A DNA stretch of 64,000 nucleotides from a virus. Its lineage: Duplodnaviria > Heunggongvirae > Uroviricota > Caudoviricetes. The notes under the pieces were generated by a model that did not search any database, was not told the DNA's origin, and worked only from the letters and a program-made list of their open reading frames with translations. The position numbers were made by a program, and so were the translations under genes. How positions within the stretch are numbered: the stretch's first letter is position 1; each line of letters begins with the position of its first letter. Shown here one piece after another: positions 31,342 through 33,088 of this stretch. The stretch is from the IMG/VR virus record IMGVR_UViG_2617271072_000004, positions 32,001 through 96,000 of that record, one strand, 5' to 3'.

Positions 31342-31479
31342 TGGTTATCCCTCAATAAAAGTGACATATTTATTAGATTGCGGTGCCGAGTGCCTCCCGG
31401 TGACGTTAACCAGTTAACAATTAACGTCGGAATGTTTAACCATTAAGGAGGATTGTTTTAACTGTTCCGCGTGCGCTTA

Positions 31480-32265
31480 GCCGCATTCACCGCAACGGAA
31501 AGAGCATTCCTGGTGGACCTGTAGATTGGGATATGAACCCGTTACAGGAGAATGCTCTTACCTGTTACGTGCTCCGTTTCGTGGAGCTAACGGCGGGTGA
31601 TCGGGCCGCACCAGACTGGACTTATTTCAGCGTTATGCTCATGCCAGAGAATCAAACTGTGATGGTCGGTGCTGAACTCCGACACAGGGTTGTAGCAAGC
31701 CCCGCAAAGCGCGCACTACTGTAGTTGCGGCACATCAGCCTGTGCATTCACCACAATGTTGAGAACACTGGTTGTCACGCTGCAACGCAACATTTATTCG
31801 TAGATTGGGATATGACCCCGTTACTCCAGTGTTCTCAACGTTATAGTGCCGGTTACGGTTCCGGCCAGGCCTCTTCCTCAACGGGGTGTTCTCCATACGG
31901 ACTACCGTTTATTGGTCGTTCCTGCGGTTTATGTTGTGAAGCCAGATGCTTATCTTCTGGTTGCTTCAAAGAGCTGCACTTCATCACAACGGTAAGAGCA
32001 CTCGATGCATTTAAGCCAAGCCCCATAAGGGAGAATGCCCTTACCTGTTGTGTTGTGATGACCGGTGCTGATCTCCGGCTTGCGGTTATTTCAGACTCTC
32101 ACGGGCGTTTAATTGCCCCGCCGAACAGCTCTTTTCCGCAATAGCTGCAATGTCTTTCGCGCATCAGCCTGCGCATTCATCACAACGGTAAGGGTACTTC
32201 GTAGGGATTCGAACCCTCTGCCAAGCTCGGCGATCTCCGACGTCGCAAAATACCCTTACCTGTTG
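31480..32265. repeat. array of nested imperfect inverted repeats with tRNA T-arm-like cores
   Basis: GGTAAG(A/G)GC arms recur at about 31489, 31553, 31980, 32037, 32176 and 32253; direct repeat TAGATTGGGATATGA(A/C)CCCGTTAC twice; GGGATTCGAACCC fragment. Confidence 0.6.
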
Positions 32266-32268
32266 TGC

Positions 32269-32344
32269 TGGTGCCGATTAACGGACTCGAACCGCTGACA
32301 TCCTGCTTACAAGGCAGGCGCTCTACCAACTGAGCTAAACCGGC
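32269..32344 (-). tRNA. tRNA-Thr (UGU)
   Basis: 76 nt GCCGGTTTAGCTCAGTTGGTAGAGC...CTTGTAA...GGTTCGAGTCC...CACCA. Confidence 0.9.
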
Positions 32345-32346
32345 AT

Positions 32347-32422
32347 TGGCGATGGTGGATGGATTTGAACCATCGACCCGTTGATTAACAGTCAACCGCT
32401 CTAACCGCTGAGCTACACCATC
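32347..32422 (-). tRNA. tRNA-Asn (GUU)
   Basis: 76 nt with anticodon loop CTGTTAA, T-arm GGTTCAAATCC and CCA end; 2 nt from tRNA-Thr. Confidence 0.88.
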
Positions 32423-33088
32423 ACTTGCCGGGTACGTCTCCGGCGAGGGCTTCCACCTCCGTATGCTTTTCGGCGCACCGCGCCCTGGCTGCAATTCGGT
32501 AACAGGGGATGCATAACCCTGGCTTCCAGCGTGATTAGCGCTTTCAGCATGACGGGATATACCCGTAAATTCGTGGAACTGTACCCAAAGTGCTGTTAAG
32601 CACCGCTGTTACGCTGAAAAGAAAACGCAACAGGAAAGGACGCTGACCAACAGATGGCCCCTTCTCGTTCATCTGGTTAATCACACCAGCGCCCTTACCT
32701 GTTGTGTCTCCCCGTTCCCTAATACACAGACGGGGACACTCTGCGGTCGATTTTTTGACGGGGGACGACTCATACCCCGTGGCGTCTGGCTTCTTAGGCC
32801 GCTACCATCATCAGATCATCGTTTGCATTTACTTTAATGGTCAGTTTCTAAACCGCCGCAAAGTCGCTAACCATGACGAAAACCCTGAAAAAAAACGCCC
32901 ACCCGAAGATGGGCAAACTGGAAGCTCGTAACGCACTTCGGAGTTGCCACTTAGGCGCATGGTCAACCTGGCAACTCGGTGGTTTGTCTGGGAGGACTAG
33001 GCCCAGCCATGCTTACCGCCGCGCCTGTCGCGGCTAACAGCTAAATCGCTCTATAAATCACGATTCATTGAGGCGATATTACACTAAT

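Follow-up and report, generated by a model that had tools for sequence, protein, structure and literature searches.

A family of structured hairpin cassettes in the probable tRNA-tciABC-ban transcript of a P1-like phage-plasmid

Introduction

What occupies the ~927 nucleotides (nt) between the tRNA genes and tciA in the ban operon of P1-like phages? We addressed this question in a 64,000-nt stretch of viral DNA (positions 32,001 to 96,000 of IMG/VR record IMGVR_UViG_2617271072_000004; hereafter the window). The window belongs to a P1-like phage-plasmid, with positions 31470-32270 (801 nt) matching a 94-kb Escherichia coli (E. coli) plasmid at 100% identity and P1, JL22 and RCS47 at 97-99.8%. 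Annotation transferred from P1 gives the minus-strand order as dmt, Oban/Pban, a leader, tRNA-Asn, tRNA-Thr, the ~927-nt interval, tciA, tciB, tciC, tRNA-Met(CAU) and ban. In reference P1, two plus-strand annotations, upl and plp, extend across the interval. On the opposite strand a sequence-only reading of the window had noticed inverted repeats enclosing tRNA-like fragments, for which it offered three explanations: decayed tRNA genes, processing signals or an unrecognised structured RNA. Our findings indicate that the interval is probably a non-coding RNA of the minus strand and part of the C1-repressed Pban transcript.

Results

As the sequence-only reading had stated, 31342-32180 is free of minus-strand open reading frames (ORFs) of 60 amino acids (aa) or more; the sole longer one (32180-32494, 104 aa) runs across both tRNA genes. 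Recognisable small proteins, such as homologues of tciB or tciC, for which that reading had allowed, did not emerge from searches against Pfam and PHROG. The four inverted-repeat units that it had described are indeed present (units A-D; Table 1), but their arms comprise 19 pairs (6 + bulge + 13) rather than the 9-17 base pairs (bp) claimed, and their cores span 29-56 nt rather than 35-50. All four fold far better than shuffled sequence (z = -3.7 to -5.1), and the whole ~929-nt interval folds at z = -9.6 with all four hairpins retained. The scaffold stem of unit D is CACAAC-A-GGTAAGGGTATTT / AAGTACCCTTACC-GTTGTG, and the stem of unit B shows compensatory changes, UAUAAC-GUUGAGAACACUG / CAGUGUUCUCAAC-AUUGUG. 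A covariance model built from lambda and other non-P1 phages, with no P1-like sequence included (R2), gave the minus-strand units A-D scores of 49-87 bits (E 1e-9 to 3e-18) and matched a fifth hairpin in the leader, unit E (32608-32710), at 29.8 bits. Unit E has no bulge and no GUGAAU hairpin downstream. Across the 64 kb at E<=1, the model otherwise detected just weaker plus-strand echoes of the same five hairpins. No Rfam family reached threshold on units A-D. Neither a permissive Rfam scan of 30300-33300 (E<=10) nor a gathering-threshold scan covering 16 related loci assigned the hairpins to a family; reported besides were the tRNAs, a sub-threshold STnc100 match, and isrK and isrJ nearby.

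The units belong to a family that is dispersed among phages. Similarity searches recovered pieces of the interval in lambdoid/Shiga toxin (Stx) phages, a P22-like Enterobacter phage, Klebsiella siphoviruses, Ackermannviridae and Sashavirus, always in non-coding gaps. A pattern scan of IMG/VR yielded at least 120 contigs, from which 64 distinct scaffolds were extracted. Their consensus, CACAAC-A-GGUAAGAGCAUUG before the core and CAGUGCUCUUUCC-GUUGUG after it, forms an irregular helix of ~19-24 bp that we call Domain I. Its outer 12 bp are conserved, including a bulged A (55/76) and a U.U mismatch (40/64), and its inner 7 bp covary. Among the 64 distinct sequences, 94.4% of cells are paired, compared with 87.5% in shuffles (0/500 as high), and both sides are altered in 14 of the 24 pairs; slid controls did not exceed 57%. 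With 19 scaffold pairs plus core pairs predicted for each unit, the helices reach about two turns (20 bp or so, or more), in agreement with the covariation. Cassettes are carried by phages or prophages of Escherichia, Klebsiella, Salmonella, Enterobacter, Cronobacter, Citrobacter, Serratia and Erwinia. When genome contigs (596 Gb) were searched with a 16-base pattern, most matches were due to chance; 7 of the 120 were real, all of them in Enterobacterales.

The spacers between the hairpins constitute a second conserved domain. Domain II has a 7-bp closing helix and contains, in order, GUGAAU, the hairpin GCGCA-GGCUGA-UGCGC, a variable insert of ~30-160 nt, the hairpin GCCGG-AGAUCAGCA-CCGGC and CACCACA(AC). 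In 48 sequences 95% of cells are paired and both sides have changed in 12 of the 24 pairs, with covariation in the closing helix and in both hairpins. The closing helix can be fully rewritten, being GAUUGGAUG/CAUCCAAUC in contig L011 and GUUGUGCUG/CAGCACAAC in lambda. The two hairpin loops (GGCUGAU and AGAUCAGCA) are complementary, GCUGA with UCAGC, and 97.9% of cells pair; since there is only one double change, a kissing interaction is plausible rather than proven. We rejected a small ORF in Domain II (AUG in GUGAAUGCGC, 6-25 codons), as its stops vary between phages and its frame is not conserved. The first Domain II copy in the window is 96-98% identical to lambdoid/Stx phages and is absent from reference P1. 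The fourth copy (31379-31494) matched STnc100 (Rfam RF02076) at 42 bits and E 4.7e-7, short of the gathering score of 47, whereas the first three gave no match to STnc100 at E<=10.

Pairing and orientation both reveal the functional strand. G.U cells exceed A.C cells by 115 to 12 in Domain I and by 34 to 5 in Domain II, all 21 tRNAs within 600 nt of an element lie on its strand (21/21), and the ORFs flanking the units are mostly co-oriented. The G.U excess and this co-orientation argue that the functional molecule is RNA of the window's minus strand. Covariation, strong strand asymmetry and more than 60 independent relatives support the suggestion of an unrecognised structured RNA.

The RNAs enclosed by the arms are hypervariable, ranging from 29 to 115 nt across the family. 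Clustering at 70% identity groups the 63 distinct cores into 42 families, some of which recur within different arms: core C was found in five contexts (the window and four other phages), and a core of the type ACGGGyyCAUAwCCCAAyC in at least 6 sequences. Core-internal hairpins show compensatory changes. Within the window, the 25-nt direct repeat that had been noted in two cores was found in units A and B (31521-31545 and 31800-31824, 96% identical). Modular exchange is also seen among close relatives. P1 and D6 have core D at the site where P7 and Ro157c2 have core C, while the window has both and additionally holds a 137-nt lambdoid segment (the lambdoid Domain II); in D6 and P7, unit A is replaced by tRNA-Ser and a different unit. 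Cassettes are swapped in the P1 family because the conserved arms serve as recombination joints.

Many units begin 5-10 nt past a terminator, the lambda case being tR'. In locus L033, the isrJ gene (Rfam RF01393) ends in a terminator directly before a Domain I unit (9495-9571, 9364-9488). Cassettes thus are typically placed just behind a terminated small RNA (sRNA). Past many cassettes lies a further recurrent motif, CCAAAyCaCnnnnnCCUnGGGACC, or CCCAAACUGAGCCGUAGCCACUG as in lambda 44950-44972 (also L008 ~2235-2260, L011 and L042). Lying downstream of Domain II, it suggests that these non-coding islands hold further conserved modules.

How might such cassettes function? Relatives of the window units lie at loci with published RNase III processing, and this homology supports the suggestion that the repeats are processing signals. 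With the model used for lambda and K-12 scores (R1), a near-consensus unit was found in lambda at 44783-44877 (43.8 bits, E 2e-8), immediately past tR', the 6S RNA terminator. The unit lies in the late leader of lambda, for which Daniels and colleagues reportedly described sites processed by RNase III in vivo (1988, Virology 167:568). In E. coli K-12, R1 matched two Qin prophage members, one downstream of cspB (36.4 bits) and the other between ydfC and dicF (17.9 bits), as well as a Rac prophage member at the 5' end of KilS (18 bits); the dicF-side Qin member, at K-12 1649169-1649261, folds into a ~22-bp stem. A preprint states that the 190-nt DicF precursor's 5' end depends on RNase III and that the 53-nt form needs RNase E (bioRxiv 10.1101/2023.04.14.536235, citing Faubladier 1990). 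A point 190 nt before the 3' end of DicF lies at L251 19246-19251, which falls within the 3' arm of the hairpin (~19239-19258 in the fold), 8-13 bp above the stem base. From the homology with the lambda and Qin members we infer that the P1 hairpins would act as RNase III processing stems.

Our preferred explanation is therefore a probable one: the cassettes would be RNase III processing stems combined with sRNA or 5' untranslated region (5'-UTR) modules that dissect the C1-controlled tRNA-tciABC-ban transcript. RNase III would cleave each Domain I stem on both strands, ~8-13 bp up from the base. The predicted cuts would separate the tRNAs (with the 3' trailer freed), the Domain II RNAs and the tciA mRNA, and would also free the upper stem with its core, yielding a small and stable hairpin RNA. 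The products would then be trimmed by RNase E and 3' exonucleases, GUGA/AUG resembling an RNase E site. Structure, strand, family membership and modular exchange are shown by the present analysis, whereas cleavage in P1, like any activity of the RNAs set free, is predicted.

Several points weigh against this explanation. The basal 4 bp of Domain I and the closing helix of Domain II use the same UGUG, so these two helices cannot both form and must compete, and the long-range minimum-free-energy fold of lambda favours Domain II. The tie between the lambda hairpin and RNase III consists of a shared position in the late leader. The dicF-side Qin member and the Rac member are weak R1 matches (17.9 and 18 bits; E ~0.03), the Qin RNase III site was located by length arithmetic rather than from a read coordinate, and the KilS 5' end has been attributed to a promoter. 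RNase III cleavage in the P1 units is suggested by relatives rather than by P1 transcripts. Furthermore, a pure processing signal leaves at least 42 conserved, internally covarying core families unexplained. Finally, a CRISPR interference (CRISPRi) study found the whole region dispensable for P1 plaque formation, and any role is therefore accessory.

The K-12 members also yielded several observations on their surroundings. The best of them (L251 11141-11240, Qin, minus strand, downstream of cspB) is followed by a short Domain II and a terminator. An unannotated ORF of 11 codons (MKQWLAYLAKS), with a strong Shine-Dalgarno sequence (AAGGAGG) 7 nt before its AUG, overlaps the 5' arm of this member. 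In Rac (L252 8406-8565), a Domain I-like hairpin carries at the top of its 3' arm the annotated 5' end of KilS, an sRNA known from Hfq RIL-seq (RNA interaction by ligation and sequencing). The body of KilS resembles DicF (GGCGGCAUCAGUUUU ... CCGCCCUUUUU) and is followed by an STnc100-like element and then kilR.

Alternative explanations

An unlikely alternative is that the cassettes act primarily in trans, as base-pairing sRNAs or decoys, with the cores and inserts being active and the scaffold giving stability. The architecture of Domain II is that of STnc100/PasD, which are Hfq-associated prophage sRNAs; KilS starts in a unit, DicF lies just downstream of the Qin unit, and the recurrence of core families in different arms would suit such a role. 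However, the longest complementarity of cores and inserts to the rest of the 64-kb window is 9-13 nt, which is the chance level, the Domain II copies of the array are without terminators or U-tails, and the cassettes have no known target or partner.

It is improbable that the units are DNA elements, either miniature inverted-repeat mobile elements or recombination 'boundary sequences', with the hairpin as a by-product. Their terminal inverted repeats of ~20 bp, the dispersal of copies over unrelated phage genomes and the swapping exactly at the arms in the P1 family are what this explanation would predict. Yet an element acting as DNA does not account for the 115 G.U against 12 A.C cells or for the fixed orientation to tRNAs and genes, and the bulged A, the U.U mismatch and a downstream Domain II are unexpected for a transposon end. 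No target-site duplications were visible as direct repeats flanking the units, and no transposase or integrase gene was noticed beside them, although no systematic search was made. Transposon ends were rejected on the missing repeats, the asymmetry and the orientation. Integron attC sites have R''/R' core sites of the form RYYYAAC / GTTRRRY; the consensus ends (G/A)CACAAC and GTTGTGG violate both patterns, and attC was likewise rejected. Retrons, type III antitoxins, CRISPR repeats and Y RNAs were dropped on their consensus or for lack of a partner gene.

We assign little probability to the explanation that the units are decayed tRNA genes, that is, functionless remnants of a larger phage tRNA cluster. 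Unit D speaks in its favour. The T-arm motif GGGATTCGAACCC pointed out in the sequence-only reading was found at 32205-32217, in the core of this unit, which alone among the window units has a canonical T-arm (at least a 4-bp stem plus a UUCRANY-type 7-nt loop). This arm, AGGG-UUCGAAU-CCCU, lies 3 nt from the 3' arm of the unit and is accompanied by a D-arm-like hairpin, GCGA-CGUCGGAGA-UCGC (with GG), and a 7-bp acceptor-like stem, UAUUUUG/CGAAGUA; there is no anticodon arm, and just ~12 nt are present where one is expected. The T-arms of unit D (32205-32215), tRNA-Thr (32283-32293) and tRNA-Asn (32361-32371) are exactly 78 nt apart, as though the unit occupied a third tRNA slot. Additional tRNAs in the interval of relatives (Tyr in Ro157c2, Ser in D6 and P7) would also fit, as would the T-arm-like hairpins in 11 of the 63 cores, compared with 0.3 expected, which lie 1-5 nt from the 3' arm or abut the 5' arm.

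As a general explanation, however, decay is not supported. The GGGTTCATATCCC of units A and B, which had been called T-arm-like, proved on inspection to be without the conserved A at T-loop position 58, and the loops concerned (UUCAUAU and GUCAUAU) are non-canonical T-loops. ARAGORN detected Asn, Thr and Met alone as tRNAs and had no match in any unit, and the Rfam tRNA model (RF00005) at E<=10 had none in 31342-32268 and none in unit E. Conservation resides in the arms rather than in the cores, with 42 unrelated core families being enclosed, and the same scaffold occurs in lambda and Qin without a nearby tRNA. The covariation of the scaffold and of the T-arm-like hairpins points to selection, not decay. 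Unit D alone is plausibly tRNA-derived.

It also seems quite improbable that the cassettes are Nus-factor (boxA/nut-like) antitermination signals that shield the untranslated transcript from Rho. The boxA sequence is UGCUCUUUAACAA in rrn and CGCUCUUA in lambda, and in such signals a single-stranded boxA (GCUCUUUA-like) is followed by a hairpin. Most 3' arms contain UGCUCUU(U/A), matching these sequences, a spacer and a 5-bp hairpin follow in a nut-like manner, and the ~2 kb of untranslated RNA before ban implies that some protection from Rho is needed. NusB/NusE bind single-stranded boxA, whereas the boxA-like bases of the cassettes are paired and covary with the 5' arm, CAGGCAGCUUUCC, CAGUUUCCUUUCC and GAGUGUCAUUUCC replacing the motif in several members. 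Pairing thus appears to be what is selected, rather than the boxA sequence, and because the arms covary we rejected boxA/nut as the main explanation; the cassettes are probably not boxA signals.

The faintest prospect is that the interval encodes Upl and Plp on the plus strand, with the inverted repeats being incidental: two ORFs lie there, one of 63 aa (31533-31724) and one of 139 aa (31725-32144), both are annotated in P1, RCS47 and JL22, and upl matches two PHROG families (which may just mirror copied P1-type annotations), but neither has a Pfam match, plp has no PHROG match, P1 plp overlaps tRNA-Thr, P7 and D6 replace much of the region and the G.U asymmetry indicates the other strand. The C-terminus of plp differs between P1 and the window, where a 215-nt non-coding cassette has been inserted and replaces the 3' end of plp. 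Of 1457 records with a match, 40 from E. coli were listed, and in none of these did the Prokaryotic Genome Annotation Pipeline (PGAP) call a coding sequence across the interval; no divergent homologues of upl or plp were found beyond near-identical P1 relatives. The P1 upl and plp ORFs are probably spurious.

Leader and neighbouring features

Positions of the features are given in Table 1. Upstream of the tRNAs, the ~650-nt leader behind the C1 operator is present as had been claimed, without an ORF of at least 60 aa. Its first segment ends, together with its homology to the DicF precursor, in a strong terminator (GCCCAUCUUCGGGUGGGC and U8, 32888-32918, minus strand) ~180 nt downstream of Pban. 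P1 may thus make a ~190-nt sRNA in the position of DicF with a different body, and expression of the tRNAs, cassettes and ban would, given this terminator, need read-through. DicF itself (Rfam RF00039) was not matched in 30300-33300 at E<=10; the likeness of the P1 'dicF-like region' is to the segment upstream of DicF rather than to the sRNA itself. Further downstream, a 50-nt block (GCGACUUUGCGG..UUUAGAAACUGACCA..UAAAUGCAAACGA) is near-identical in P1, Klebsiella siphovirus MK54 and Taipeivirus K751 (L009 ~1850-1905; L007 ~1860-1915). In MK54 it lies behind a TTGACA-17-TAGATT promoter and is followed by a cassette and tRNA-Arg and tRNA-Met; the block might signal the start of an operon. Directly behind the 3' end of a Domain II, tRNAs begin in MK54 and also in other contigs. 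Together with the hairpin 4 nt before tRNA-Asn in the window, this layout suggests that the end of Domain II doubles as a tRNA 5'-leader element. At the other end of the operon, the tRNA with a CAU anticodon (30557-30632) is tRNA-Met according to ARAGORN and some P1 records, and tRNA-Ile2 (ileX-like, lysidine-dependent) in curated P1 and P7 annotations.

Table 1 Features of the interval and its surroundings, in the order of minus-strand transcription
Feature	Position in window	Strand	Basis and remarks
C1 operator Oban (Op72a/b) overlapping Pban, operon start	33076..33105 (approximate)	-	P1 annotation transfer; ATTGCTCTAATAAATTT read directly
First leader segment	32888..33075	-	P1 annotation, Qin comparison; homologous to region upstream of dicF in Qin (P1 'dicF-like region')
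Intrinsic terminator ending first leader segment	stem 32896-32918, T-run to ~32888	-	terminator scan
Conserved leader block GCGACTTTGCGG..TTTAGAAACTGACCA..TAAATGCAAACGA	32816..32867	-	alignment; common to Klebsiella phages MK54, K751
Unit E, Domain I-type hairpin in leader	32625..32707	-	fold z -6.1; R2 29.8 bits, E 2.7e-5
Hairpin GCCGG-N8-CCGGC	32427..32444	-	read from sequence; 4 nt upstream of tRNA-Asn; resembles Domain II hairpin 3
tRNA-Asn(GTT)	32347..32422	-	ARAGORN; Rfam 74.5 bits
tRNA-Thr(TGT), encoded CCA	32269..32344	-	ARAGORN; Rfam 72.9 bits
Domain I unit D	32181..32267	-	fold; R2 86.8 bits
Domain II-1: closing helix, GUGAAU-type linker, hairpin GCGCAGGCUGAUGCGC, variable insert, hairpin CCGGAGAUCAGCACCGG, CAUCACAAC	32052..32186	-	
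Domain I unit C; core UCCCUUAUGGGGCUUGGCUUAAAUGCAUC	31985..32052	-	fold; R2 49.1 bits
Domain II-2, short variant (GUUGUGAUGAAG ... CUUCACAAC)	31933..31990	-	sequence reading; Sashavirus, Klebsiella phage matches
Small hairpin CCGG-AACCGUAA-CCGG	31849..31864	-	directly 5' of unit B; like hairpins precede units in other phages
Domain I unit B; core with ACGGGGUCAUAUCCCAAUCUAC motif	31752..31845	-	fold; R2 63.3 bits
Domain II-3 (hairpin GCACAGGCUGAUGUGC ... GUCGGAGUUCAGCACCGAC-CAUCACA)	31657..31757	-	sequence and Domain II alignment
Small hairpin GCUCC-ACGAAAC-GGAGC	31571..31587	-	directly 5' of unit A; recurs ahead of units on IMG/VR contigs
Domain I unit A; core with ACGGGUUCAUAUCCCAAUCUAC	31491..31569	-	fold; R2 62.6 bits
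Domain II-4, STnc100-like, 5' UTR of tciA	31378..31496	-	Rfam RF02076 sub-threshold; homologous to elements directly upstream of dicB (Qin), kilR (Rac)
tciA (TerB family; Pfam TerB), first protein-coding gene downstream of array	30907..31341	-	ORF list, Pfam, PHROG

Discussion

Our combined findings suggest that, of the explanations offered in the sequence-only reading, a processing signal or unrecognised structured RNA was essentially right. Relatives of the cassettes have individually been touched by earlier work, namely the lambda late leader, the DicF precursor, KilS, STnc100 and the P1 'dicF-like region'. In the literature that we searched, neither the two-domain modular family nor its hypervariable repertoire of cores was described, and the P1 trnT-tciA interval was nowhere recognised as an array of four cassettes, probably mis-annotated as upl and plp. 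The scaffold sequences appeared in no paper, and nothing relevant was found in the literature on P1 transcriptomics or on phage tRNA-like non-coding RNAs.

The well-used P1 genome is probably mis-annotated, with two 'genes' lying over an opposite-strand structured-RNA array. The lambda late-leader RNase III sites, DicF biogenesis, KilS, STnc100/PasD and the P1 'dicF-like region' would all fit one two-domain cassette. Recent papers regard RNase III-dependent sRNA biogenesis as rare in Gram-negative bacteria, a view that a widespread phage scaffold for such biogenesis would change. The question this raises is the role of the 40-plus conserved, interchangeable cores, which is approachable through P1 genetics and rnc mutants.

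One speculative possibility, to which we give only a small chance, is that Domain I is a 'display and release' cassette. It would carry fast-exchanging small structured RNAs that RNase III excises and that act in trans, for instance as regulators or as decoys that divert either tRNA-binding enzymes or the host's tRNA-targeting defence nucleases, and recombination at the arms would shuffle them among unrelated phages as an arms-race toolkit. The repertoire comprises at least 42 core families in ~80 contigs, some of which would mimic a tRNA elbow (T-arm and D-arm, no anticodon arm). If this were true, P1, with four cassettes beside its tRNAs, would be the richest known carrier.

Among known systems, one likeness is to the rRNA operon, whose leader and trailer pair into a long helix. 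Its RNase III stems and spacer tRNAs offer an analogous arrangement, with a long helix around a stable RNA in an untranslated polycistronic transcript, and have no sequence relationship to the cassettes. Unit D and ~17% of the cores share with anticodon-arm-less mimics, the tRNA-like domain of transfer-messenger RNA (tmRNA) and YrlA, a T-arm-like hairpin, sometimes a D-arm-like hairpin with GG and a 7-bp acceptor-like inner stem. Unlike these mimics, the units are missed by ARAGORN and by the Rfam tRNA, tmRNA and YrlA models, have no CCA end and extend the acceptor stem by 12 bp; the single match to YrlA/bacterial Y RNA (RF02553; 25.6 bits against a threshold of 69) lay over the two real tRNAs and not over a unit.

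Resemblance is also found in STnc100, which has been related to PasD, an sRNA of enteropathogenic E. coli (EPEC). Domain II has the STnc100 layout of a 7-bp closing helix (UGGUG.../...CACCA), a GAAU linker, a 5' hairpin and a 3' CCGG-loop-CCGG hairpin; the array copies differ in having no terminator and in their conserved complementary loops, which the Rfam consensus does not display. Lambda resembles P1 in having the scaffold CACAACAGGUAAGAGCAUUG ... CAGUGCUCUUUCCGUUGUG followed by a Domain II with a covarying closing helix, within a long antiterminated leader, and differs in having a single copy with a different core and no adjacent tRNAs. The Qin dicBF operon is known for an RNase III site giving rise to the 190-nt DicF precursor (Faubladier 1990; Ragunathan et al. 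2023). In Qin, a Domain I-like hairpin, which is a divergent family member (17.9 bits), is followed by the DicF-precursor segment (homologous to the P1 'dicF-like' leader), the DicF sRNA with its terminator, an STnc100-like 5' UTR and the small ORF dicB. An STnc100-like element precedes dicB in Qin, kilR in Rac and tciA in P1. Compared with Qin, the parts in P1 are rearranged and multiplied, with the DicF-like segment upstream of the tRNAs and carrying a different sRNA body, and four cassettes downstream of the tRNAs.

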